Notes under the pieces: generated by a model | What the model saw: only the letters and a program-made list of their open reading frames with translations | Databases searched by the model: none | What the model was told of the DNA's origin: nothing | Source of the DNA: Rickettsiales bacterium | GTDB lineage: Bacteria > Pseudomonadota > Alphaproteobacteria > Rickettsiales > UBA1997 | Reading direction: 5' to 3' | Length of the DNA: 36,489 nucleotides | Assembly: GCA_031284025.1 (NCBI GenBank) | Contig: JAITAR010000109.1 | Location: 1-36,489, forward strand | Position numbers and translations under genes: made by a program | Part shown: positions 1,100-29,041 of the stretch, piece after piece | How positions within the stretch are numbered: the stretch's first letter is position 1 | How the letters are laid out: each line of letters starts with the position of its first letter

Positions 1100-3175
1100 T
1101 TAGAGTAACAGATCCAGAGTGATGGCAAGGGTGCCACCGACTAAATTCTTTGAATAGGTTTCACCGTAGTGAATTCCCACAGAAACATCATTTAGACTAT
1201 AGCTGATGCCTAGACCAACCTCAAAAGCAACTCGAGGGATACTTCCAATGTTGGCTATGTTGTAGCTATGTCCATTGACTAGTGTGACACTATAAAATTT
1301 GTCACTGTAATCTAACAGAGTGTAGAGAAAGGCACAGCGAACATCGATGCTGGGTCGTCTACTTCGACCTGGGATACGATAGCGAAAGCCAAAGGCAGAG
1401 GTCAGTATCTTCCCTTCAACACTGGCTATAGAGCCACCGAGGCCATTGCTATAGCTGGCACTAAACGTTGAAGAATATCTTAGACTAACTTCATGGATCA
1501 GATTTTTAATTTTTGTCAGACTATAGCTGGCTGTGAAGTTTAGCTGCAGTGCATTGCCTCCATAGTTGAGTTTGCCTTCACTGCTGCTGGAGAAACCATA
1601 GCCAATTAAACCACTCAGCTGTAGATTGGGATCATTGCTGTGTCTAATGTGTACGGCGAAGGCATTCGTTACCATTTTACCGTTTCTCTCTGAAAAATTA
1701 TTGCTGTTTAGTATATAAACTATGTCAGCTGTAGAATTATTTCCAACTTTGTGACTAAAGCCACTGACAATACCTCCCAGATCTGCCATAGAACCTCCCA
1801 ACCCTAAATAACCACCGAAAGTTGATAGCCAAAGGCCGTCATTCCTACTTTCCAACACATTTCTATCCTCTAGCAGCTGAGATGCTACTTTCAGAGGGGC
1901 TAGAGCTATTCCTATGTGAAAGGATAGGTTAGAATCGGGATTATGATCTCGGTAGAACTTCTCCAGAGATTTAGCATCGACATTCTTCACATAGCTCTGT
2001 ACCTCGGGATTTGTCTCTATAGTTGAGTTGATAAATTCGGTCATTCCTACTAAATTCCAGCTATTCATAATATTATTCAATGTGCTCTGATCCAAAGCTC
2101 TCCGAAATATTAGCGTTCCGTAGTTGACTAGCCCATTTTTTTCCTCAAAGGTAATTTCTACATCGCCATTGGCGGGAGCAATCGTTGGTCTGTAGGAATC
2201 CAGATTAGCCGATTCTTGAATGTATCTATATCTTCCAGTTCCTTTCTTGGCCAGTTCAGCCATTAGGGACTCTGAAATTACCGGTTTCAGAACTGGACTG
2301 CCAACTACTCGGCTACGAATGTCCATGCGACCACCGGCTCCCGTTGTAGAACCACTGGACTCATCAAATTTGGTGGGAGTAAAAATAAGAACTGGATTTT
2401 CCCCATTCATAGCCACAAAATTTATATCTGTTTGGTTCAGAGTACTACTCCCCATATCAAATTTAATCGGTCCAGTTACTGTGATGACGGTGCCACTGAA
2501 AGTACGTCCCAAAATTCCCCCATCTATTTTAAAGGTACCTCTGCCCACTATATTTAGCGAACCGAAGTTAACTATGTCATTTTTCTCCGCAGCAGATCTA
2601 TTGTTTTCGAATTTAGCAAGAGAATCGTCACCATCCAAATAGAAATTTATAGTTTTTCCATTGTAATTATATATTGCTCCTCCGGCATAGGGATCACCGC
2701 TAGTGTTGTTTGAAAAAGTTGAATTTCCTCTAAAACTTGCAGTACCATTGTTATAGAAAGCTCCACCATATAAAGTCGCTCTGTTAGAGGAAAACAAAAT
2801 TGGGCCTACAAAGGCTACATTTCCCCCATCATTATACAGGGCGCCACCATTTTCTGATGCGAAATTGTTAGTCAAGGTTAAATTGTTTGCGCTGACAGTT
2901 CCTTTGTTGTGGATAGCGCCACCATCGAGATTTGTGCTGTTGGCCATAAATTTGACGTTGTTTAGTTCTATTGTTCCCCCTTCCCTAACTTCAACGACTC
3001 CACCTTGTAAATTAGAAGTACTGTGGTCGGTGAAATTATTATCATTAAATGTAACAGTCGATCCAGAACCAACCACGGTCCTTCCGTTATTCGATGCTGT
3101 AGCGTTGGTTGATAAATTTAGTAGACAGATAAGGTATGTCACTATAGGAAAATATCCGCATTTGATCTTTAGCAT
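1100..3175 (-). CDS. Pmp-repeat autotransporter, complete (691 aa): signal peptide, GGA[ILV]/FxxN passenger, C-terminal beta-barrel-like region
   Basis: ATG at 3175 and a hydrophobic N-terminus (YFPIVTYLICLLNLSTNATA). Motifs DGGAIHN, NGGALYN, YGGAFYN and AGGAIYN are interleaved with FMAN, FSSN, FSNN and FENN. The C-terminal ~280 aa has alternating hydrophobic, Gly/Ser/Tyr-rich beta-strand character typical of autotransporter barrels. It lies in tandem upstream of the partial paralog at 1..987. Confidence 0.85.
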   Translation of the reverse strand: MLKIKCGYFPIVTYLICLLNLSTNATASNNGRTVVGSGSTVTFNDNNFTDHSTSNLQGGVVEVREGGTIELNNVKFMANSTNLDGGAIHNKGTVSANNLTLTNNFASENGGALYNDGGNVAFVGPILFSSNRATLYGGAFYNNGTASFRGNSTFSNNTSGDPYAGGAIYNYNGKTINFYLDGDDSLAKFENNRSAAEKNDIVNFGSLNIVGRGTFKIDGGILGRTFSGTVITVTGPIKFDMGSSTLNQTDINFVAMNGENPVLIFTPTKFDESSGSTTGAGGRMDIRSRVVGSPVLKPVISESLMAELAKKGTGRYRYIQESANLDSYRPTIAPANGDVEITFEEKNGLVNYGTLIFRRALDQSTLNNIMNSWNLVGMTEFINSTIETNPEVQSYVKNVDAKSLEKFYRDHNPDSNLSFHIGIALAPLKVASQLLEDRNVLESRNDGLWLSTFGGYLGLGGSMADLGGIVSGFSHKVGNNSTADIVYILNSNNFSERNGKMVTNAFAVHIRHSNDPNLQLSGLIGYGFSSSSEGKLNYGGNALQLNFTASYSLTKIKNLIHEVSLRYSSTFSASYSNGLGGSIASVEGKILTSAFGFRYRIPGRSRRPSIDVRCAFLYTLLDYSDKFYSVTLVNGHSYNIANIGSIPRVAFEVGLGISYSLNDVSVGIHYGETYSKNLVGGTLAITLDLLL

Positions 3176-8940: not shown

Positions 8941-9094
8941 CCAGTAGCTATTTGTCGTTTGTTCTCGGAGAGACAGGTGTATGTTTCATTATATTTTCCT
9001 CCATGGATGAATAAGAAAACTACATCTAGAAAATAATCTATGAAAAATATACCGCGGGTTCTGTTTGCGGTCTTTACTTTCAATAGAAATTATC

Positions 9095-9122
9095 TTGACA
9101 TGATCGTTTTCTTATTTATTAT
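9095..9122 (+). promoter_or_regulatory. Putative sigma-70 promoter (TTGACA-16 nt-TATTAT) for the deaminase gene
   Basis: TTGACA at 9095..9100 and TATTAT at 9117..9122, about 30 nt upstream of the ATG at 9151. It lies inside the over-extended track ORF that begins at 9040. Confidence 0.4.
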
Positions 9123-9150
9123 TATGATAATCGTCAGAAAACAGAAAAAA

Positions 9151-10059
9151 ATGAAAGATTTGCATCTCCATCTTTCGGGGGGAACATCACAGGCACTTCT
9201 ATTCGAGATACTTAATGAATCTGGCAGAAAAATAAAGACGAAATCCTATAGGAAATTCGTTGAAATGCTGACCATGAATCCAAGTAGAATTAAAAATGTA
9301 GAAGATTATCTGGAAATAAATCATATAGTGGATGAAACCCAGAGTTCGCCAAGAGCTGTGGAATTATCGGTCTACGATGCCTTTAAAAATTCATTTTTGA
9401 GTGGCTGTGACTACCTAGAGCTAAGATGGAACCCCTATAAAAGAAGCCAGGATTTCAAAATAGATCTGGACAGACTGATTGTTGCAGCGAGAAGCGGCTT
9501 TGAAAAAGCAAATTCTGTGTTCGGCATAGATGGCTCCATGATTTTCTGCATGGGTAGGGATTGTAATGAGGAGCAGAATGAGAGTATATTCAAAAAGGCC
9601 ATACAATACTCTCGCAGAGGAGTTGTGGGTCTGGACGCTGCGGGACCAGAGGTCAAAGTGCCAATAAAACCAGAATTCGAGCAGTACTACAAAATAGCTA
9701 ATGCCGTCGGGCTAATCACCACCATACACTGCGGAGAACCATTTTACGACGGAGTGGAAGATACACTGGCCACAGTATTGGAAAAATATAAACCCAAGAG
9801 AATTGGCCATGGGGTACAAATTCACAGATTTCCAAAGCTTATGAAATTGGCTTCAAGCATGGGTGTGGTATTTGAGATATGCATATCGAGCAATCTCATG
9901 ACCAAAGTTGTTAGCTCGAAGAGAGAATTTTTTGATATTTTCAAGACATTTGAAAATTATCAGATAAAATACGTAATTTGCACCGACGCTACTTTCCCAC
10001 TAAATACAAATATAACACGGGAACACGAAATATATAAAAATATCACCAATTATAGCTAA
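9151..10059 (+). CDS. Adenosine/adenine deaminase-family amidohydrolase
   Basis: Metal and catalytic motifs appear in order: LHLHLSGG (HxH), IHCGE, RIGHGV, EICISSN, CTDA. I take the start at the internal ATG 9151 (MKDLHLHL). The 37 upstream residues of the track ORF are hydrophobic filler and overlap a promoter-like site and a hairpin. Confidence 0.7.
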   Translation: MKDLHLHLSGGTSQALLFEILNESGRKIKTKSYRKFVEMLTMNPSRIKNVEDYLEINHIVDETQSSPRAVELSVYDAFKNSFLSGCDYLELRWNPYKRSQDFKIDLDRLIVAARSGFEKANSVFGIDGSMIFCMGRDCNEEQNESIFKKAIQYSRRGVVGLDAAGPEVKVPIKPEFEQYYKIANAVGLITTIHCGEPFYDGVEDTLATVLEKYKPKRIGHGVQIHRFPKLMKLASSMGVVFEICISSNLMTKVVSSKREFFDIFKTFENYQIKYVICTDATFPLNTNITREHEIYKNITNYS

Positions 10060-11720
10060 TCGACTCTGGCAACGCTGAGTCCATCTTCGATGCGCCTAAG
10101 AACCTTATCTCTTCCCATTATATTCATTTGGCTATACAGATCTGGACCTTGTTCTCTACCCGTCAGTAAAATTCTAATAATTCTTGTAACGTCTGAAATG
10201 CTACCGCTAAATTTTTCGGGTTGCTCTTTAAAATCTCTGTTGTTATCCGCATAGTTACACTCTCTCGCTATAATTTTCATTTTTTCAAACCACTCTTCTT
10301 TAGAATCTTTATCATTGTAAATCTCCAAAAATAGCTGGCCTATTTTAGCTACGTCATCTTTATCTGTGTTGTCCAGGCTACTTTTTACAGTCTTCCCATC
10401 CAACTCAAAAAAATATATAATTTCATTTCTGACTTCACTCCATTTCGCTATGTCCTTTCTAGTTTTACCATTTGTGTCTCGTTCGATGCTGAATATTTTC
10501 ACTGCCAACTCTCTGTTGCTGGTAATTGTTCCCAACAGATCCGGATCATATTTTCTAGCCCAGACTGTGGTATTTTCATAGATTTCTTCCGCTGACATTT
10601 TACCTATAACATTTTTGCTAACACTGTCTAGTTTTACAAAATCGAAAAGAGCTCCACTAACGTTCATTTTTTTTATGTCAAAGGGAAATTTACTATGATG
10701 TACCTCTGGATTTTGTTTTCGCCAGTTTTCAAAGTTAGAATTTGCAACATTTATCAGATACTCTTTAACACTGTCCCTTGGGTAGCCAGCTCTATCGAAA
10801 TACTCCACATCGGCTTCGGGATCTTTTCTTTTACTAAGTTTTCTTCTGATGTTGCCGTCCATTTTCATCAGTGGAGATATGTGAGCATAGCGTGGAGCCT
10901 TCCATTTCATAGCTTGGAATAGCTGTATGTGTATGGGTAGCGAAGGCAGCCATTCGTCACCTCTCACCACAAGATTTGTGCCCATTAGAAAATCGTCAAC
11001 GATGTGGGCAAAATGATATGTCGGTAGAAAATTTTTTTTCAGTATGACTATATCTAAATCATTCTCCGGAAATTCCACATTACCTCGTAAAATATCATTG
11101 ACAACAATTTTTCTGTTGAAATTACCCGGGGATTTGAACCTAACCACGTACTCCTCTCCTTTTTCAATTTTTCTAATGGATTCTTCAGCGGGATAATTTC
11201 TGTAGCTAGCCCAACTGCCGTAGTAGCCAAGTCTCCTACAGCCATTATTTTTCTGTCTATTTGCTATTTCTTCCAATTCCTCTTCGCTGCAAAAACATGG
11301 GTAGGCTAACCCTCTTTCAACTAGGCTCTTTGCAAAAACTTTGTATATTAGCTTTCTTTTACTCTGCACATAGGGTCCATATACTCCAAAGTCGACAGCA
11401 TTCCCAGGGCCCTCATCATACCTAATGGCAAAATAGTCAAGAGTGCTGATTATTTTATCAACGGCTCCTGCCACTTCCCTTTTTTCATCGGTGTCCTCAA
11501 TTCTCAGAAAAAATATACCATCCGAACTATGGGCGACTCTTTCGCTGACCATTGCTGAATATAAATTTCCAATGTGCATGAAACCGGTAGGGCTTGGAGC
11601 GAATCTTGTTATTTTTTTGCTACCATTGAGATCTCTCGCTTGATATCTGTTAAAAATGTCCTCCACCGCCAGCACGTCTTCGGTAAAAATTTTCTTTGCC
11701 AATTCCTCATTTGGTTCCAT
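10056..11720 (-). CDS. gltX: Glutamyl-tRNA synthetase (long form, 554 aa)
   Basis: Class I motifs: RFAPSPTGFMHIGN (HIGH region), LRIEDTD, PTYHFAHIVDD, VVRGDEW, KLSKRK (KMSKS). Its stop overlaps the convergent deaminase stop by 4 nt. Confidence 0.92.
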   Translation of the reverse strand: MEPNEELAKKIFTEDVLAVEDIFNRYQARDLNGSKKITRFAPSPTGFMHIGNLYSAMVSERVAHSSDGIFFLRIEDTDEKREVAGAVDKIISTLDYFAIRYDEGPGNAVDFGVYGPYVQSKRKLIYKVFAKSLVERGLAYPCFCSEEELEEIANRQKNNGCRRLGYYGSWASYRNYPAEESIRKIEKGEEYVVRFKSPGNFNRKIVVNDILRGNVEFPENDLDIVILKKNFLPTYHFAHIVDDFLMGTNLVVRGDEWLPSLPIHIQLFQAMKWKAPRYAHISPLMKMDGNIRRKLSKRKDPEADVEYFDRAGYPRDSVKEYLINVANSNFENWRKQNPEVHHSKFPFDIKKMNVSGALFDFVKLDSVSKNVIGKMSAEEIYENTTVWARKYDPDLLGTITSNRELAVKIFSIERDTNGKTRKDIAKWSEVRNEIIYFFELDGKTVKSSLDNTDKDDVAKIGQLFLEIYNDKDSKEEWFEKMKIIARECNYADNNRDFKEQPEKFSGSISDVTRIIRILLTGREQGPDLYSQMNIMGRDKVLRRIEDGLSVARVD

Positions 11721-11767: not shown

Positions 11768-14665
11768 TTACACACTTCTGTTTAGCCCGTTCCAGAGATA
11801 TTCCGCAGTGAAAGGAGCAAGAGAGGCTATGGCCCTGATCATTGTCACCAGGACAGTGTACAGCACATTGTAAGCGTTTTTTCTATCTAGGATGTTCTTT
11901 GATTTCCAAAAACGATTCCTATTTCTTCTTATGTACCAATTGTTGAGAATTTCAAAGAATTCTTCGGACTCTCGGCAGGCACTGCCAAAATCATAGCTGT
12001 CCATGGCAGCCTCTATCTTTTCGACTGCCTTCTTTAGCTTTGATAGAATATATATGTCCATGCCATTATCTATAAAATTACTACCAAAAGAGTAATTTCT
12101 TTTTTTCAGCTCTTCAATCGAGGCCGACATTTTTACATGTTTTATGCCAACTTCCTCAAATTCTTCACCAATACTTCTAAAGCCCATGCTTTCGTAGAAA
12201 ACTCTCAGCTGAGCTTGAGCATCGAATTCTATTTTCTCTATGCCATCCATTGAAAACGAATCTACTATGAAAAATTTAATGAGCTGTTTAGCAACATATC
12301 TGCCTCTAAATTTTTTGAGAATAGAAAATCTCTGGGGCTTCAGGCAATTGTTTTCCAAACGAACTCTGAGGGTAGCGATGGGCTCATTCTTTTGATATAC
12401 CACGTAGTGCAGCGTGCTGGGATCAAAATCATAGCTATCGGCTTCCTCCTTCGCACTAATGTTTTGTTCTTCCACAAAAACAACTCTTCTGACACTTTTT
12501 GCATTGTCAATTATTTTTTTGTTTCTACCTTTTCTGAGGACGAAAATATCATCGTTCTGCAATATATCTTCGCCTTTTAGGCCACTGCCATTGGCATAGA
12601 GACAGAAAAAATTATAGGAGTTCATTATGGGCTTCAGAGCTAATCTCATGGTTTCTCTGATATCTCTTCCATCTTTGCTGATTCTGAATTCCTCTCCCAC
12701 TAAAGCTGGAGACTTAAGCATGAGCCATCTGACAGAGTCACTTCCGTAGCTATCGAAGGCTTCGTAGGGATCAACATAATTTCTCAGTCTTTTTGATAGT
12801 TTTTTTCCATTTTCGTCGATTATGGTGCCGAAAGATATGCAATTTTTAAATGGATTTACATCAAATAGAGCTGTGGATAGAACCAGTAGAGTGTAGAACC
12901 AACCTCTCACCTGTCCGTCCCCTTCGGCTATGAAGTCAGCAGGGAAATTCTTTTCAAAATAATCTCTATTCTCGAATGGATAGTGCAGCTGTGCGTAGGG
13001 CATTGCTCCGCTCTCAAACCAGCAGTCCAAAACTTCAGGAACTCTCACCATCATAGATTTGCCACTAGGATCGTCGGGATTTTTCCTTGTTAAACTATCT
13101 ATAAATGGTCTATGTAGATTTTTTGGGCGTATGCCAAAATCCCTCTCTATTTCATCCAATGAGCCATAGACATCAATCCGTGGATATTTTGGACTATCAC
13201 TTTTCCAAACGGGAATTGGACAGCCCCAAAACCTGTTTCTGCTTATAGACCATTCTCTTGCCCCCTCCAGCCACTTCCCAAATCTTCCATTCTTCAGATG
13301 GGCTGGGATCCAATTTATACCTTTATTGTTCCTGATGATTTTCTCTTTGATTTTAGGCACATCGACAAACCAGGAGGACATAGCTCGATATATCAGCGGC
13401 GTATCTGTCCGCCAGCAGTGGGGATAGTTATGTAGATACTGTTCCGTTTTAAACCAACCGCCTTCTTGTTTCAATTTAATTATTATCTGCTCGTTCGTAT
13501 CAAATACCTGTTGGCCCTCATAGTCATACACTATGCCTGTGAAACATCCGGCATCATCGATGGGGCATACAACGGGTATTCCAGCATTTTTACAGGCTAT
13601 TTGATCATCTTCTCCAAATCCCGGAGCCATGTGAACAATACAAGTTCCGTCTTCGGTAGTGACAAAATCACCCTGAAGTACGGTAAAACAATTTTTTGAA
13701 TTCTTGACTTCAGCTATAGCTGTCATGTAACTAAACAGAGGTGTGTATTTCAGGCCAAGCAGATCAGTTCCCTTGAGAATTTTAATTAGATTCATTCTGC
13801 CATCTTTATCTACTAGTTCCTTCTCATATCTATTCAGTGTGCTCTCTCCAATTAGGTAGTAACCATCATCACGGTGAACAAGCGCATAGTTAACCCGACT
13901 GTTAACCGCGATGGCTAGATTAGACGGAAGTGTCCAAGGTGTTGTGGTCCAAACTAGAAGATAAACACTATCCATGGCCAATTCTTCTATAAATCCGGGT
14001 AACTGTTCAAGTTTGAATCTGACCGTTATCGCTCTGTCGGCTCGCTCTCTGAAGGAGTTATCCATTCTAGTTTCCATATTGGATAGAGGAGTTTGGCATT
14101 TCCATGAGTAGGGCATAACTCTGTAGTCCTCATAGAGTAAATTTTTGTCGTAGAGCTGTTTGAATACCCAAAGCACCGATTCCATATAATTCAGATCCAT
14201 AGTTCTGTAACCATTGTCAAAATCTACCCATCTGCCAGATCTGGTTACATGTTTTTTCCAGTCGTTTACGTATCTAAGGACATCCTCACGGCAATAGCTA
14301 TTAAATTTTTCTATGCCATACTCTTCGATGGCTTTTCTGCCTCCTATGCCCAGGACATTTTCAGCACTTTGTTCTGCCGGAAGCCCGTGGCAATCCCATC
14401 CAAATCTTCTAAGAACTCTTTTCCCCTTCATCGTCTGGTATCTCGCCACCGTATCCTTAATGTATCCAGCTAGAAGGTGCCCATAGTGTGGTAGACCATT
14501 GGCAAAGGGCGGTCCATCGAAAAATACAAAATTATTGTCTAGATTTCTTTCTAGAGACAGTTCAAATATATGTCTCTCATTCCAAAAATTTATTACCCAC
14601 TCTTCCAATTCTTTGAAACTCAAACTATTATTTACTTCGGGGTAAAATTTCTTTGCATTGGTCAT
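11768..14665 (-). CDS. ileS: Isoleucyl-tRNA synthetase (type-2-like) with an embedded GNAT domain and no extended C-terminal domain
   Basis: PPFANGLPHYGH (HIGH), WDCHGLP, TTTPWTLPSN (editing CP1), WRTDTPLIYRA, WSISRNRFWGCPIP, KLSKRL (KMSKS), NNWYIRRNRNRFW. See the separate feature and findings for the insertion. Confidence 0.95.
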   Translation of the reverse strand: MTNAKKFYPEVNNSLSFKELEEWVINFWNERHIFELSLERNLDNNFVFFDGPPFANGLPHYGHLLAGYIKDTVARYQTMKGKRVLRRFGWDCHGLPAEQSAENVLGIGGRKAIEEYGIEKFNSYCREDVLRYVNDWKKHVTRSGRWVDFDNGYRTMDLNYMESVLWVFKQLYDKNLLYEDYRVMPYSWKCQTPLSNMETRMDNSFRERADRAITVRFKLEQLPGFIEELAMDSVYLLVWTTTPWTLPSNLAIAVNSRVNYALVHRDDGYYLIGESTLNRYEKELVDKDGRMNLIKILKGTDLLGLKYTPLFSYMTAIAEVKNSKNCFTVLQGDFVTTEDGTCIVHMAPGFGEDDQIACKNAGIPVVCPIDDAGCFTGIVYDYEGQQVFDTNEQIIIKLKQEGGWFKTEQYLHNYPHCWRTDTPLIYRAMSSWFVDVPKIKEKIIRNNKGINWIPAHLKNGRFGKWLEGAREWSISRNRFWGCPIPVWKSDSPKYPRIDVYGSLDEIERDFGIRPKNLHRPFIDSLTRKNPDDPSGKSMMVRVPEVLDCWFESGAMPYAQLHYPFENRDYFEKNFPADFIAEGDGQVRGWFYTLLVLSTALFDVNPFKNCISFGTIIDENGKKLSKRLRNYVDPYEAFDSYGSDSVRWLMLKSPALVGEEFRISKDGRDIRETMRLALKPIMNSYNFFCLYANGSGLKGEDILQNDDIFVLRKGRNKKIIDNAKSVRRVVFVEEQNISAKEEADSYDFDPSTLHYVVYQKNEPIATLRVRLENNCLKPQRFSILKKFRGRYVAKQLIKFFIVDSFSMDGIEKIEFDAQAQLRVFYESMGFRSIGEEFEEVGIKHVKMSASIEELKKRNYSFGSNFIDNGMDIYILSKLKKAVEKIEAAMDSYDFGSACRESEEFFEILNNWYIRRNRNRFWKSKNILDRKNAYNVLYTVLVTMIRAIASLAPFTAEYLWNGLNRSV
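12068..12589 (-). other. In-frame YjcF/ElaA-type GNAT acetyltransferase domain inserted in IleRS (residues ~693-866; core 12122..12520)
   Basis: The insert reads VRRVVFVEEQNISAKEEADSYDFDPSTLHYVVYQKNEPIATLRVRL..QRFSILKKFRGRYVAKQLI..EFDAQAQLRVFYESMGFRSIGEEFEEVGIKHVKM. This is colinear with the pattern I recall for B. subtilis YjcF (VREEVFVKEQNVPAEEE.D..E..S.H.VVYDGEKPVGAGR.R...LERICVLKSHR..GVG..I..NAQTQAVPFYKKHGYRV.S.KEFLDAGIPHLQM). Both junctions are in frame with no stops. Confidence 0.8.
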
Positions 14666-20240: not shown

Positions 20241-21068
20241 ATGCATTGCAGACAAAAATTTAGGCATATTTTCATCTATTTGACTTTGTTATTTCTAGCC
20301 AATCTGTTTCCACACCTGATAAAATGCGTTAACACTGCCAATGCCTCCGTGATCATAGTTTTACCCGATGGCCTTGAAACCAGAGAAATAAACGGGGATA
20401 AATATAGAAAATTAAGAAATCGCTATAGTGATGTTGGCCAGATAAATAATCAGTATAAGGGTGAACTAGTCTATAGGCCGGACAATAATGGAGTTATTAC
20501 CTACAGAGATGGAAGATTTTACGTATCCGCTTGTTTTTCTGCAAAAAAATTCTCCGTAAAGGAAATAGAGGATTCTAACGGAATTATTTCCACCGTTGAT
20601 CCAGACAAATATAGATTTTCCTATTTTGGATCATTTGGCTACTATTTCAATAGAAGCATGGCTGTTGAATTTGAATATTTTGACTACATTGATTCGCTAG
20701 CTGCCATAGCGCCAAATATATTTAATAATATTGGAGAATTTAGTATAAATACAAAAAATTATATGGCTAATTTTCTGATGGAGATTAATGAAACTAAACT
20801 CGTTCCATTTTTTGGGGTTGGTCTGGGATTAGCCAATAGTAGCTATAGTGGCTACAATAAAGCGAACAACCCCGTAATAGTGGGTAAAATTGAGCCATTG
20901 TATCAGATCATTCTGGGTATAGAGTTTGCCGTCACTCAAGAACTGTTGTTTGATATCAGAGGTAAATTACATAGAACGTTTTCTGATCAAAAAATTAATG
21001 GTGGCGAATATAAAATAAGGTATAATAACCGCTATTCTTTCGGTCTGGGTTTTAAATACATATTGTAA
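20241..21068 (+). CDS. Small outer-membrane beta-barrel protein (OmpA-like/opacity/surface-antigen type)
   Basis: Signal peptide (IFIYLTLLFLANLFPHLIKCVNTANA). Alternating-hydrophobic strands are rich in G, Y and F (FGSFGYYF, VEFEYF, FFGVGLGLA, ILGIEFA). The C-terminal strand is YSFGLGFKYIL. Confidence 0.65.
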   Translation: MHCRQKFRHIFIYLTLLFLANLFPHLIKCVNTANASVIIVLPDGLETREINGDKYRKLRNRYSDVGQINNQYKGELVYRPDNNGVITYRDGRFYVSACFSAKKFSVKEIEDSNGIISTVDPDKYRFSYFGSFGYYFNRSMAVEFEYFDYIDSLAAIAPNIFNNIGEFSINTKNYMANFLMEINETKLVPFFGVGLGLANSSYSGYNKANNPVIVGKIEPLYQIILGIEFAVTQELLFDIRGKLHRTFSDQKINGGEYKIRYNNRYSFGLGFKYIL

Positions 21069-23317: not shown

Positions 23318-24712
23318 CTATAAACCCTCCACAAGTTTTTTAAATTCATCGCCATAGCTACTGTAGTAGACATTATTCATTTTATCAATGAACATTGGAC
23401 TCAGCAGAACTACTATTTCGTCCTCTATGCCATTCTCGGTTACGTAATCAATAATCTTGGCTAAAGCATCCCTAACATTGTCAATTTTTTCAATTTTAAC
23501 ATTATTTCCACAACTCTCCGATGGATCATCTACTATCCCCAGTACATCGATAAGAAATGATAGTTTTATATTATCCCTATGGTTTTTTAGCCTGATAAGA
23601 TCACCGCCAGTTCTACTGTCAACTACAAAAATAGCAAATATGTTGCTATACATTTCAAAGGGAGATTCTATCAATTTTACCGTATCAGCACAGGAGTTAT
23701 CAATAAATACAATATTTTTATCGTGTCTTAGGCATTCCATGTTGTGGGCAAGCCCCCTGAAAGTCCCAAGATTTGCCATAATTATCTGAGAGTCTAAATC
23801 AAGAGTACTAGCTATAACAAACGACGACAACAGTGATAATTCGTTGAGATTACTAGCCACAAAATTGCTATTGTTCAGATCATAGGATAGGTTGGAATTA
23901 TGGTAATTGTATATGGTGCCATTAACATAGGAGTAACCGTTTTCAACCATTTTTTCCACGGAAATTGGCATGATTCTAATGCCACCATTATTTGTCAGAG
24001 CAAAATTTTCCTGAAAATCCTTAAATATGGGATTATCAATATTTACCATCAACACGCCATTTCCATTCTGTTTTGCCAGAAAGTTTCTAACTAGATGGAG
24101 TTGTTCCTCCTTTTCTAGGTTCAGCAAAGCTGTAACGTCAAAACTGAGATTTTTAAGGTAGTCCATTTCTAGTGCGGCTAGATCTAGCACAAATATATTA
24201 TTCTCTCTCAAATTCAAATTGCTAATTGATTTTCCATCGCTGTAGCTATCTTCGGTCGGTAGAGTTGCGGGTCCAATGACATTAGTCTGTCTATCGCCGA
24301 ATATGTAGCTGAGAGCAGAACAGATTATTTTTCTGTAACTTTTTCCAAAAATCGCTACGAATTTATTCTCCGGAAATAAATCTTTTATAATTGCCGCAGC
24401 CAGAAACACTTTGTCTGCTAACTGACTAATTTTTTTTGCTATGTTGCTTCCTAGACCATGGTCATCGAGGGACAAATTTTGTCCAAGGATGATAAGGTCA
24501 ATGGAATCTAAATGGTAGCTATTTATATCTCTAACAATTTCCATGGCAAATTCACTATCTCCGCGATAGATTAATGATGGATCTGAATTTGGGCAGTACA
24601 GTGAAACTTCATTGCCATATTCTCTGAGCAGTTCGCCCAGAGCGAAACTAATGTGGTCTGTTCCCAATACAATAATTGTCTTTCCACCGTCTTTAACGCT
24701 ATTGATTATCAT
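23318..24712 (-). CDS. MurD-like Mur-ligase homolog with substituted catalytic motifs
   Basis: Colinear end to end with E. coli MurD: GKTIIVLG vs GKNVVIIG, FVAIFGKSYRKII vs IVAITGSNGKSTV, VLDLAALEMD vs VLELSSFQLE, LLNLEKEEQLHL vs ILNVTEDHMDRY, FRGLAHNME vs FTGLPHRFE, FIDNSCADT vs WINDSKATN, VVLLSP..YGDEFKKL vs MVLLSP..RGNEFARL. Confidence 0.7.
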   Translation of the reverse strand: MIINSVKDGGKTIIVLGTDHISFALGELLREYGNEVSLYCPNSDPSLIYRGDSEFAMEIVRDINSYHLDSIDLIILGQNLSLDDHGLGSNIAKKISQLADKVFLAAAIIKDLFPENKFVAIFGKSYRKIICSALSYIFGDRQTNVIGPATLPTEDSYSDGKSISNLNLRENNIFVLDLAALEMDYLKNLSFDVTALLNLEKEEQLHLVRNFLAKQNGNGVLMVNIDNPIFKDFQENFALTNNGGIRIMPISVEKMVENGYSYVNGTIYNYHNSNLSYDLNNSNFVASNLNELSLLSSFVIASTLDLDSQIIMANLGTFRGLAHNMECLRHDKNIVFIDNSCADTVKLIESPFEMYSNIFAIFVVDSRTGGDLIRLKNHRDNIKLSFLIDVLGIVDDPSESCGNNVKIEKIDNVRDALAKIIDYVTENGIEDEIVVLLSPMFIDKMNNVYYSSYGDEFKKLVEGL

Positions 24713-27955: not shown

Positions 27956-29041
27956 ATGTTAATTTTGTTTTCAAGTATATTCCTTATTTTTCTAGTTCTC
28001 ATAGTTTTGGAACTAGATTTTTCCCGCAGATCTCTTAATAAAAATTCTAAAAAATCTGGCGACTCAAAGGATATTGGTGGCAAAGCTGATCCCGCAGTTG
28101 GTAAAAATATTTCCGCCGATGCCACTGCCGCTAAGCTAGATGATATTCTCAAGTTGTTAAAATCCAGTAAAACTGATGAGCTGGTGGTTGAAATGGATGT
28201 GTACATAAAAACACTGATTAATGATATGGGAGCACTCAAGAAAGTACTAATCGGCAATTCTTCCGATTCCAATAAAGACATGTTGCCCACAATGGCTAAA
28301 GATATAGGAGTGTTGGAGGAAAATATTTCTTTCCTTAGAAAGGATGTGCAAACTTTAGCTAGCAAAAAAATATCGGAAATTCTGGATAGAATTTCGGATC
28401 TGGAACAAAAACTTTATATAAAACTTGAGGAATCTGCTAACTATCCATTGGCTGATGATTACAGCGATAAAGAAGAAGAGGTGGAAGACAGGGATGAAGA
28501 ATATAAAGAAGAAGGAGAAAACGAAGAAGAGGAAGAAGAAAATGAGAAAGAAAATGATGAAGAAGAAGAAAAAGAAGAAGAAACGGAAGAGGAGGAAGAA
28601 AATGAAGAGGAAGAAAAAGAAGAAGAGGAAGAAAAAGAAGAAGAGGAGGAAGAAAAAGAAGAAGAAACGGAAGAGGAGGAAGAAAAAGAAGAAGAAACGG
28701 AAGAGGAAGAAGAAAATGAGGAAGAAACGGAAGAGGAAGAAGAAAATGAAGAGGAAGAAAAAGAAGAAGAGGAAGAAGAAAATGAAGAGGAAGAAACGGA
28801 AGAGGAGGAAACTGCGGAAATAGATGAGACGTTTAACCCCCCAGAAATAGAATTTGATGAAAATGCAATTGTAGAGGAAAAAAGCGAAGATGATAGTTCA
28901 GAAACCGAAGATGAATTTTCAGATGCTAGTGAATCTGAAGAAAAAGGTAGCCAGAAGAAAAAAGGACTTAGGGATAGTGAAGAACTTATGGAAAAGATAA
29001 AAAAACTCAAAGAAAAACTCAATAGTGGGGATTCTAAGTGA
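27956..29041 (+). CDS. Membrane-anchored, extremely Glu-rich protein (single N-terminal TM, coiled-coil-like middle, acidic tract of ~120 aa)
   Basis: MLILFSSIFLIFLVLIVLEL is followed by basic residues (RRSLNKNSKKSGDSK), so the C-terminal part is predicted to be cytoplasmic. The tract DKEEEVEDRDEEYKEEGENEEEEEENEKEND...EEEETEEEETAEIDE follows. The gene ends in tandem stops TGA TAA, 25 nt before the ATPase start. Confidence 0.7.
   Translation: MLILFSSIFLIFLVLIVLELDFSRRSLNKNSKKSGDSKDIGGKADPAVGKNISADATAAKLDDILKLLKSSKTDELVVEMDVYIKTLINDMGALKKVLIGNSSDSNKDMLPTMAKDIGVLEENISFLRKDVQTLASKKISEILDRISDLEQKLYIKLEESANYPLADDYSDKEEEVEDRDEEYKEEGENEEEEEENEKENDEEEEKEEETEEEEENEEEEKEEEEEKEEEEEEKEEETEEEEEKEEETEEEEENEEETEEEEENEEEEKEEEEEENEEEETEEEETAEIDETFNPPEIEFDENAIVEEKSEDDSSETEDEFSDASESEEKGSQKKKGLRDSEELMEKIKKLKEKLNSGDSK
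28466..28812 (+). repeat. GAA-rich polypurine tract with imperfect 30-nt tandem periodicity
   Basis: The plus strand is almost pure purine for about 350 nt. The unit aaagaagaagaaacggaagaggaggaagaa occurs at 28571..28600, at 28655..28684, directly adjacent at 28685..28714 (1 mismatch), and as a variant at 28715..28744. Confidence 0.9.

Follow-up and report, generated by a model that had tools for sequence, protein, structure and literature searches.

Enzymes that combine an aminoacyl-tRNA synthetase (aaRS) with a domain of the GNAT fold are already known, both as fusions (ErdS, LysX) and, for isoleucyl-tRNA synthetase (IleRS), as a curated category in NCBIfam, NF040702 (ileS_w_GNAT). Mycobacterial LysX joins LysRS to MprF, and the appended domain is supplied by the product of the synthetase. 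GNATs are also linked to aaRSs as a recurrent means of immunity to antibiotics that target them: RimL and the C-terminal domain of MccE disarm aaRS inhibitors by acetylating the alpha-amine of the aminoacyl-mimicking warhead. TfxH gives immunity to an aaRS-targeting antibiotic by warhead acetylation (bioRxiv 10.64898/2025.12.02.691738), and in the fungal fusion ErdS (AspRS-DUF2156) it is again the synthetase product that feeds the appended GNAT-fold domain (PMC8913301). Here, we describe a further combination, in the ileS gene of an uncultured Rickettsiales bacterium (UBA1997; assembly GCA_031284025.1). The DNA analysed is the contig JAITAR010000109.1, a stretch of 36,489 nt that we refer to as a whole as the window. 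Its IleRS carries, in frame and within its anticodon-recognising region, a complete GNAT of the ElaA/YjcF family.

The arrangement differs from each of the described ones. ErdS and LysX likewise hold an aaRS and a GNAT-fold domain in one polypeptide, but theirs are terminal double-GNAT DUF2156 transferases with aminoacyl-tRNA as donor, whereas the window has a single GNAT of the acetyl-CoA type, placed internally by the anticodon pocket. MccE, RimL and TfxH share with it a functional link between GNAT and aaRS, but they are separate proteins; moreover, the window GNAT is of the ElaA type and does not belong to PF13302, the MccE/RimL-type family, to which its insert has no match at E<=1. We know of no inhibitor for the window's system. 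There is also NF040702 (‘isoleucine--tRNA ligase, N-acetyltransferase domain-containing’), a curated IleRS with a GNAT in the same polypeptide. Judging from the coordinates of its hidden Markov model (HMM), however, the ~150 extra positions of that family belong to CP1 and would correspond to a place between window aa ~275 and 327, and the profile passes straight across the window's insertion site. On score the window protein was rejected as a member, reaching 306.5 bits against a cutoff of 1999, which is below the score of the same protein on ValRS models. The GNAT itself resembles ElaA/YjcF/SACOL1063-type proteins (PF13673; 5JPH/5JQ4, 1Q2Y, 5Z6N, 3EFA, 1XEB), with E down to 3.5e-19, TM of 0.85-0.91 and a root-mean-square deviation (rmsd) of 1.6-2.0 A. 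Those proteins are free-standing and ~140-150 aa long, whereas the window's is an internal aaRS insert with a Tyr in motif A.

The insert and its host enzyme

The window gene ileS occupies 11768..14665 on the minus strand, as do all the features within it given below, with its stop codon at 11768-11770. Its open reading frame (ORF) is open throughout and encodes a 965-aa type 2 IleRS with a GNAT insert. A sequence-only reading of this DNA had claimed a YjcF/ElaA-type GNAT between the catalytic core and the anticodon-binding domain, at residues ~690-870 (12068-12589), and the HMM, PDB and fold searches agree that a complete, in-frame domain of this type stands between the Pfam catalytic and anticodon domains of a genuine IleRS. 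We scanned that interval (aa 693-866) separately against Pfam and PDB. By itself it exceeds the gathering scores of the GNAT-superfamily models Acetyltransf_10 (PF13673; 53.3 bits, cutoff 23.6, E=3.5e-14), Acetyltransf_7 (PF13508; 37.5 bits, cutoff 27, E=3e-9) and Acetyltransf_1 (PF00583; 28.0 bits, cutoff 20.7). The best match among solved structures is SACOL1063 of S. aureus (5JQ4, E=3.5e-19), and B. subtilis YjcF (1Q2Y, E=1.5e-13) and E. coli ElaA (5Z6N, E=6.9e-9) follow, all three over their full length; a profile made from nine intact inserts raises these matches to 8e-28, 1e-20 and 3e-15, respectively.

Structure prediction gives the same answer. AlphaFold2 models a canonical GNAT both within the full protein (mean pLDDT 86.6; 73-94 over the insert) and from the insert alone (pLDDT 88, pTM 0.84), that is, the domain is predicted to fold by itself, in the GNAT order beta1-alpha1-alpha2-beta2-4-alpha3-beta5-alpha4-beta6. 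The neighbours of the predicted insert in a fold search are SACOL1063 with CoA (TM 0.85, rmsd 2.0 A), 3EFA of L. plantarum (TM 0.91), ElaA (TM 0.86), YjcF and PA0115, the same proteins that lead the PDB sequence matches. The signatures of the ElaA/YjcF subfamily (RxxVFxxEQ, EFxAQ..FY..GF and GIxHxxM) are all present and are invariant in the nine inserts. The segment is not an ElaA equivalog, however, since it scores 39.1 bits on PRK10314 against a cutoff of 171; the two share a Pfam family. It is, in short, a bona fide and complete ElaA/YjcF-family GNAT lying in frame inside an IleRS.

Alignment with insert-less relatives sets the boundaries of the inserted segment, the GNAT plus short linkers, at aa 705-865 (12071..12553), somewhat inside the extent first claimed, with the GNAT fold proper at aa ~708-849 (12119-12544). 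The segment is preceded by FFCLYANGSGLKGEDILQN and followed by NGMDIYILSKLK. In the insert-less relatives, which are ~805 aa long with a core ~73% identical, about six residues (‘SFKS-KN’) separate FFCLYANSDGIKA from ‘MDIYILSKLK’. The single open 965-aa ORF, and relatives that align on either side of the segment, bear out the earlier view of a domain insertion rather than a neighbouring gene.

Motif A, the acetyl-CoA pyrophosphate loop, had been read as RGRYVA, and correctly so (R787-G-R-Y-V-A792; 12290..12307). Compared with the pattern Q/R-x-x-G-x-G/A, it retains the Arg and the Ala and has Tyr for the usual Gly at the fourth position. It had been called atypical, but the form still lies within the range of the ElaA family: motif A of ElaA is RGEKVG, with Lys at the same position. 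Because ElaA itself has no Gly there, the Tyr substitution seems to be one that the family tolerates, yet it calls for caution about activity here. Elsewhere the loop reads RGKGLG, RGKGIA or RRRGIA in distant insert-bearing IleRS, and RDRYIA in a decayed sister lineage. The beta5-alpha4 motif E813-F-D-A-Q ... F-Y824 (12194..12229), with a candidate general-acid Tyr, aligns with NAQCHAIPFYESLNF of SACOL1063, and every one of the nine intact inserts has its E, F, A, Q, L and Y. Towards the end of the domain, the ElaA-family motif G840-I-K-H-V-K-M846 (12128..12148) resembles GIEHIEM of SACOL1063 and GIPHIGM of ElaA; K842, H843 and M846 do not vary among intact inserts.

The host is a housekeeping IleRS. 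The whole protein scores 814.4 bits on TIGR00392 (isoleucyl-tRNA synthetase; cutoff 621.4), and Pfam places tRNA-synt_1 at aa 25-655 and Anticodon_1 at aa 870-959. The HIGH signature reads H60-Y-G-H63 (14477..14488), with P59, H60, G62 and H63 conserved at 90% or more in the alignment. The KMSKS loop, reported as KLSKR at residues 621-625, is indeed KLSKR, though at K622-L-S-K-R626 (12788..12802), where K622, S624, K625 and R626 are invariant. In CP1, WTTTPWTLPSN (aa 239-249; 13919..13951) and GTCIVHMAPGFGEDD (aa 340-354; 13604-13648), which we take from established knowledge to be the IleRS editing-site motifs, are mostly invariant across an 18-sequence alignment, and editing by the window IleRS looks intact.

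The catalytic (HUP) domain is that of a type 2 enzyme: human and yeast cytosolic IleRS, T. thermophilus IleRS and IleRS2 of P. megaterium (PmIleRS2) match at E=1e-177 to 1e-200, structures of type 1 (IleRS1) more weakly at E=1e-76 to 1e-93, and a fold search ranks the two types in the same order. The type 2 layout at the C-terminus, ARD1-ARD2(-INS)-ARD3 as the domains are named in a 2026 preprint about the evolution of the IleRS C-terminus (bioRxiv 10.64898/2026.02.03.703510), is absent beyond its first domain. The window IleRS stops after ARD1, Anticodon_1 is matched at model positions 1-91 of 148 only, and the PF19302 C-terminal domain is missing, while a Rickettsia IleRS (P0107) is longer by ~280 residues and keeps PF19302. 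The window ileS thus encodes a minimal, eukaryote-like enzyme that ends after ARD1. We found no separate gene for the missing C-terminal domains in the window or in the fetched loci. The entire Rickettsiales IleRS clade (~800-aa core; P0007-P0104, L009-L015) stops at ‘...EYLWNGL’, right after ARD1.

Where in ARD1 does the GNAT lie? In PmIleRS2 the anticodon loop occupies a cleft built by ARD1 to ARD3; N647, F651, S713 and R721 of ARD1 recognise A35/U36, and R964 of ARD3 reads G34, its change to Ala causing a 1000-fold loss (bioRxiv 10.64898/2026.02.03.703510). By phmmer alignment to 8C8U/8C8V, N647/F651 correspond to N682/F686 of the window protein and S713/R721 to N908/R916. N682 and F686 are borne by the first ARD1 helix (aa 667-694; 12584..12667), as placed by the AlphaFold2 model and the residue mapping, and N908 and R916 lie in NNWYIRRNRNRFW within the remainder of ARD1 (aa 866-965; 11771..12070), as placed by Pfam and the same mapping. 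The GNAT sits in the ARD1 loop between these two anticodon-reading helices, 18 residues past F686 and with the insertion point ~45 residues ahead of the S713/R721 equivalents. This loop is variable by nature (~6-25 residues in other IleRS). The sequence-only reading was right to put the domain past the Pfam catalytic domain, but its position is within ARD1, by the anticodon pocket, and not near the synthetic site. We infer that the GNAT stands next to the anticodon pocket, with the synthetic and editing sites tens of angstroms away. For it to act in cis on Ile-AMP, or to reach the acceptor end of the tRNA that the enzyme has bound, would then be geometrically unlikely.

Recurrence, inheritance and loss

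About 15 IleRS proteins from independent Rickettsiales metagenome-assembled genomes (MAGs) carry an insert at the window's site. These sequences were drawn from JGI, ENA, Logan and NCBI assemblies, and the census is a lower bound. Inserts with intact motifs are found there in P0002, P0003, P0005, P0006, P0009, P0010, P0011, P0026, P0388 and the fragment P0127; L011, a GTDB representative, is near-identical to P0009. All named sources are ‘Rickettsiales bacterium’ MAGs, several of them from the guts of lower termites, the isolate prefixes Gsp477 and Roe453 standing for gut metagenomes of Glyptotermes and Roisinitermes.

Such recurrence bears on whether the architecture is an artefact, be it a chimera of the assembly or a pseudogene in which a frameshift has joined two genes. 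What might suggest this is the NCBI annotation, in which the gene is split and a separate 235-aa ‘GNAT family N-acetyltransferase’ (MDR2778615.1; 11768..12475, minus strand) is called as a coding sequence. That split marks no real gene boundary: the 235-aa protein (P0121) is aa 731-965 of the IleRS with a GTG read as Met, and it would begin within GNAT helix alpha1 (aa 716-733). The same split is seen on two related contigs (MDR2760333.1, MDR0423191.1), the spurious proteins being 235-254 aa long with an anticodon-domain tail, and JGI calls a full-length IleRS on all three contigs (965 aa on the window contig). The pipeline has in this way turned at least three such genes into a spurious GNAT with an anticodon-binding tail; the insert-bearing sequences are public and, save for these three cases, annotated only as IleRS. 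The 965-aa frame is uninterrupted, purifying selection spans both junctions, and ~15 independent contigs from varied samples and assemblers have the insert at the same site, the intact ones with conserved linkers. Since the same architecture appears on independent JGI, ENA, Logan and NCBI contigs, misassembly is in practice excluded, and we give an artefact of either kind a negligible chance.

An intein or other mobile element was likewise ruled out, as relatives without the insert also have an invariant N867, the residue that follows it here, and there are neither splicing motifs nor terminal direct or inverted repeats of note. P0241, a 1066-aa IleRS-like protein with a C-terminal GNAT, was set aside; it looks like a chimeric gene call with transposase and phosphatase domains.

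Comparison among these sequences shows what appears to be an old, lineage-specific accessory module that has co-diverged with its enzyme and has been lost or has decayed in places. The nine intact inserts, from IleRS with cores 62-93% identical among themselves, share 28 invariant GNAT positions; these include RxxVFxxEQ, the motif-A Arg, EFxAQ, the FY tyrosine, GF and KH..M. The linkers are conserved between lineages as well. Among the window, P0002 and P0003, the ratio of nonsynonymous to synonymous substitution (dN/dS) in the insert is 0.05-0.14, rough values given that dS is saturated, and the comparison points to purifying selection on the insert in the window's lineage. Identities of insert and core are correlated (r=0.90), which argues for an old insertion and mainly vertical inheritance. 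A recent foreign acquisition is not supported: the insert has a G+C content of 36.6% against 41.3% for the core, and it co-diverges with the core.

In the core tree, insert-bearing sequences fall at no fewer than five separate places, grouped with nearest neighbours that have none (support 71-100): P0005 pairs with P0055 (84), P0009 and P0011 with P0081 (94), P0010 with P0083 (100), and L013 with P0094 (71). The window subclade and its decayed sister (support 100) are together sister to an insert-less clade (100). The closest of these pairs is instructive. P0010 (979 aa; L001:2196-5135) and P0083 (816 aa; L003:1682-4132) are 98% identical in protein and 97.5% identical in DNA, with a 489-nt insert between them. 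Their substitutions are concentrated within ~12-25 nt of each insert junction, and they cease to be homologous 75 bp before the start codon and, at the other end, at the stop codon; the neighbouring genes differ. From its sequence, this looks like a recent recombinational exchange of the ileS allele or of the insert as a cassette. The P0010 insert is also unusually divergent, being 55% identical to that of P0026 when the cores are 93% identical.

Decay has occurred twice, in P0004 (=L012), L009 and L010, which are sister to the window subclade, and independently in L013. The decayed inserts keep their length (~155-160 aa) and have lost the EQ, AQ, FY and KH motifs, and Pfam detects them barely or no longer; in P0004, dN is 0.14 in the core but 0.65-0.75 in the insert. 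The window subclade and the decayed sister clade have in common the motif-A variant R-x-R-Y-[VI]-A. Across the set, ileS is found in differing genomic contexts. Because the insert is cleanly absent from many close relatives and from a near-identical allele, it must be dispensable for charging tRNA(Ile).

The same order of bacteria has placed GNATs elsewhere in IleRS. L014 (1197 aa; L014:3098-6688) has an ElaA-type GNAT at aa ~300-430 and a GNAT of the Acetyltransf_3 (RimJ/RimL) type at aa 542-677 (76 bits); L015 (1161 aa; L015:3185-6667) has an ElaA-type GNAT at aa ~297-424 and an Acetyltransf_3 GNAT at aa 621-770; and P0077 (981 aa) has a single Acetyltransf_3 (PF13302) GNAT in CP1 and none of the ElaA type. 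All three resemble the window protein in their truncated IleRS2 backbone, and L014 and L015 also in having an ElaA-type GNAT. They differ from it in that their GNATs are in CP1 and the catalytic body, and the ElaA-type domains of L014 and L015 are only 27-29% identical to the window's. Their Acetyltransf_3 domains share PF13302 with RimL and MccE. None belongs to NF040702 on score (P0077, 350 bits; L014, 280; L015, 281), and the GNAT of P0077 alone has no match to that model. Altogether, GNATs of two families occupy five insertion sites in Rickettsiales IleRS (aa ~267, ~290, ~380, ~448 and 704/866 in window numbering). L014 bears, in addition, a further insert of ~75 aa and of unknown type.

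The neighbourhood of ileS

Besides ileS, the window contains rho, mreBC, lgt, add, gltX, a MraY-like gene, rodA, ruvB, tmk, parAB, glmU, and genes for a P-type ATPase and an autotransporter. The gltX gene (554 aa; 10056-11720, minus strand) follows ileS at a distance of 47 bp, on the same strand, and is free of any GNAT. Its product is longer than usual between the catalytic and anticodon domains, and its 3' end overlaps a convergent adenosine-deaminase gene (9040-10059, plus strand) by 4 nt. A GAA-rich tandem array at 28472-28810 (plus strand), within the ORF 27956..29041, has periods of 15-51 over ~300 nt and encodes a low-complexity stretch of poly-Glu/Lys; it explains why the purine skew is extreme in the bin at 28-29 kb.

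Three ORFs had no Pfam match at E<=1e-5: 1100-3175 (minus strand, 691 aa), 20241-21068 (plus strand, 275 aa) and 23318-24712 (minus strand, 464 aa). A related contig, L006, has a 463-aa ORF, with no Pfam match on record, at the same position beside parAB. Over the whole 36.5-kb window we found no tRNA or tmRNA genes and no Rfam families at the gathering threshold. PADLOC models of anti-phage defence matched neither the insert nor the whole protein, and the defence scan of the window was empty.

Possible roles of the tethered GNAT

Given a GNAT inside an IleRS, what might its role be? The reading that we prefer, tentatively and as a plausible rather than a probable one, is that the GNAT protects the IleRS against isoleucine-mimicking amines. 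SACOL1063, its nearest characterised homologue, acetylates free amino acids (PMC10267138), and the window GNAT is probably still an acetyl-CoA-dependent N-acetyltransferase that acts, in the same way, on small amino-acid-like amines. It would acetylate the alpha-amine of isoleucine-mimicking inhibitors or of near-cognate amino acids, and so spare the IleRS, which we regard as the selective reason that asks for the fewest assumptions. The key would be its tethering to the IleRS, not a fixed channel to the active site; in related IleRS, four other surface sites are taken by GNATs, and these belong to two families, so tethering itself seems to matter. The GNAT would then be an immunity module after the MccE/RimL/TfxH paradigm, co-inherited with its target. 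The varied sites and geometries, the two families, the near-identical alleles with and without the insert, the decay and loss, and the differing contexts of ileS fit an accessory, intermittently selected function tethered to IleRS. The ileS gene is surrounded by ordinary housekeeping genes, with no biosynthetic cluster among them.

Several points weigh against this protective reading. A free-standing GNAT would clear a diffusible inhibitor just as well. To our knowledge, no isoleucine-mimicking inhibitor has come from the habitat, nor do we know of an established physiological substrate for the ElaA family. In the window subclade, motif A has Tyr where most GNATs need Gly, a change common to the decayed sister (RDRYIA), and the window's own copy could be heading to inactivity. 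Decayed domains have been retained in two lineages, which fits a non-catalytic role. The core tree is a bootstrapped neighbour-joining tree only. Finally, the geometry of the site, the loss of ARD3 and the retained dead copies back a role directed at the tRNA almost as well.

In that tRNA-directed alternative, which we consider unlikely but worth taking seriously, the GNAT docks at the A35/U36 pocket of an IleRS without ARD2, INS and ARD3. It could there be a non-catalytic extra wall of the anticodon cleft, improving tRNA(Ile) binding or discrimination of the wobble base, or it could be catalytic on an anticodon-loop amine such as the free alpha-amine of lysidine-34. The insertion point, 18 residues past the N647/F651 equivalents and ~45 ahead of those of S713/R721, speaks for it, as do the absence here of the ARD3 that reads G34 in PmIleRS2 and the full-length persistence of catalytically decayed inserts in two lineages. 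Yet many close relatives are equally truncated at the C-terminus and have no insert, including the 98% identical allele, and nine lineages keep catalytic GNAT residues that a purely structural role would not need. Nor is the insert consistently basic (net charge -5 to +5, against -4.5+/-5.3 in free-standing homologues); at the four further sites, the GNATs are part of CP1 or the catalytic body, distant from the anticodon; and we know of no ElaA-type GNAT with RNA as its substrate. A more specific version is a long shot: a tRNA-directed GNAT of an IleRS lacking ARD2 to ARD3, the domains to which reading of the wobble base normally falls, anchored by the A35/U36 pocket, would read or acetylate the wobble side, for instance the lysidine-34 alpha-amine of tRNA(Ile2), and so couple anticodon-loop modification to charging. 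The repeated capture of GNATs in termite-gut Rickettsiales would then amount to an undescribed partnership between IleRS and acetyltransferases.

The remaining explanations make less use of the anticodon pocket. The GNAT might be a passenger that does an ordinary YjcF/ElaA job and has lodged in a permissive loop of an essential, constitutively expressed gene of a genome-reducing endosymbiont, with the IleRS as its carrier. The loop does vary naturally (~6-25 residues in other IleRS), this clade of IleRS tolerates non-GNAT insertions too, the domain is dispensable and frequently lost or decayed, and free-standing homologues of ~140-150 aa number in the thousands. We nevertheless doubt it, because at least five GNAT sites and two families in the IleRS of one order, plus an unrelated NCBIfam family, are hard to call an accident, the adjacent GluRS has no such insert, and the linkers are conserved across lineages. 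That the domain is instead a built-in regulator, which acetylates lysines of the IleRS or of bound partners according to the level of acetyl-CoA and so tunes aminoacylation, strikes us as rather improbable. In E. coli, lysine acetylation affects most aminoacyl-tRNA ligases, and in some cases it is enzymatic, but ElaA overexpression in the same E. coli screen merely blocked growth (PMC6199490). Any surface tether would suit self-acetylation, in keeping with the multiple insertion sites, yet no lysine acetyltransferase is known among ElaA/YjcF-type proteins, SACOL1063 acts on free amino acids, and the window's site is probably far from KMSKS and the synthetic site. Very improbable, in our estimation, is N-acetylation in cis of the enzyme's own Ile-tRNA(Ile) or Ile-AMP by chemistry like that of ItaT, a possibility that the sequence-only reading had raised among others. 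GNAT toxins acetylate aminoacyl-tRNAs, ItaT reportedly with Ile-tRNA(Ile) as its preferred substrate, and the growth inhibition by overexpressed ElaA (PMC6199490) would be in keeping with such an activity. The insert, however, is at the anticodon end, by our placement tens of angstroms from the acceptor end, and an enzyme that constitutively acetylated what it makes would poison translation. The window GNAT has in common with ItaT, AtaT and TacT only the GNAT superfamily, with no similarity to them among PDB sequence matches at E<=1, profile matches or the top 50 fold matches, and there is no antitoxin partner, the neighbours of ileS being gltX and a glycosyltransferase. Nor do MccE and RimL, which the sequence-only reading had cited along with these toxins, show a specific kinship with it among PDB sequence matches at E<=1 or the top 50 fold matches.

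As to novelty, literature searches returned no paper on a GNAT inside an IleRS, and the 2026 preprint on IleRS domain evolution mentions neither GNAT nor acetyltransferase. The author of the sequence-only reading knew of no described IleRS of this kind; the architecture is not unique, however, given ~15 Rickettsiales proteins and the NF040702 category. The findings also reveal a clade of IleRS without the ARD3 pocket that is essential to G34 recognition in P. megaterium IleRS2.

Bacterial aaRSs seldom acquire whole catalytic domains, and here a single essential enzyme in a single order has done so at five or more capture sites. This pattern suggests a selective pressure specific to IleRS, for which isoleucine-mimicking inhibitors, tRNA(Ile) recognition after C-terminal loss, and metabolic control are candidates. 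At the window's site the domain can be seen in intact, decayed and absent states, including alleles that are 97.5% identical with and without the insert. Such paired alleles are a natural experiment on the effect that a GNAT in cis has on a synthetase.

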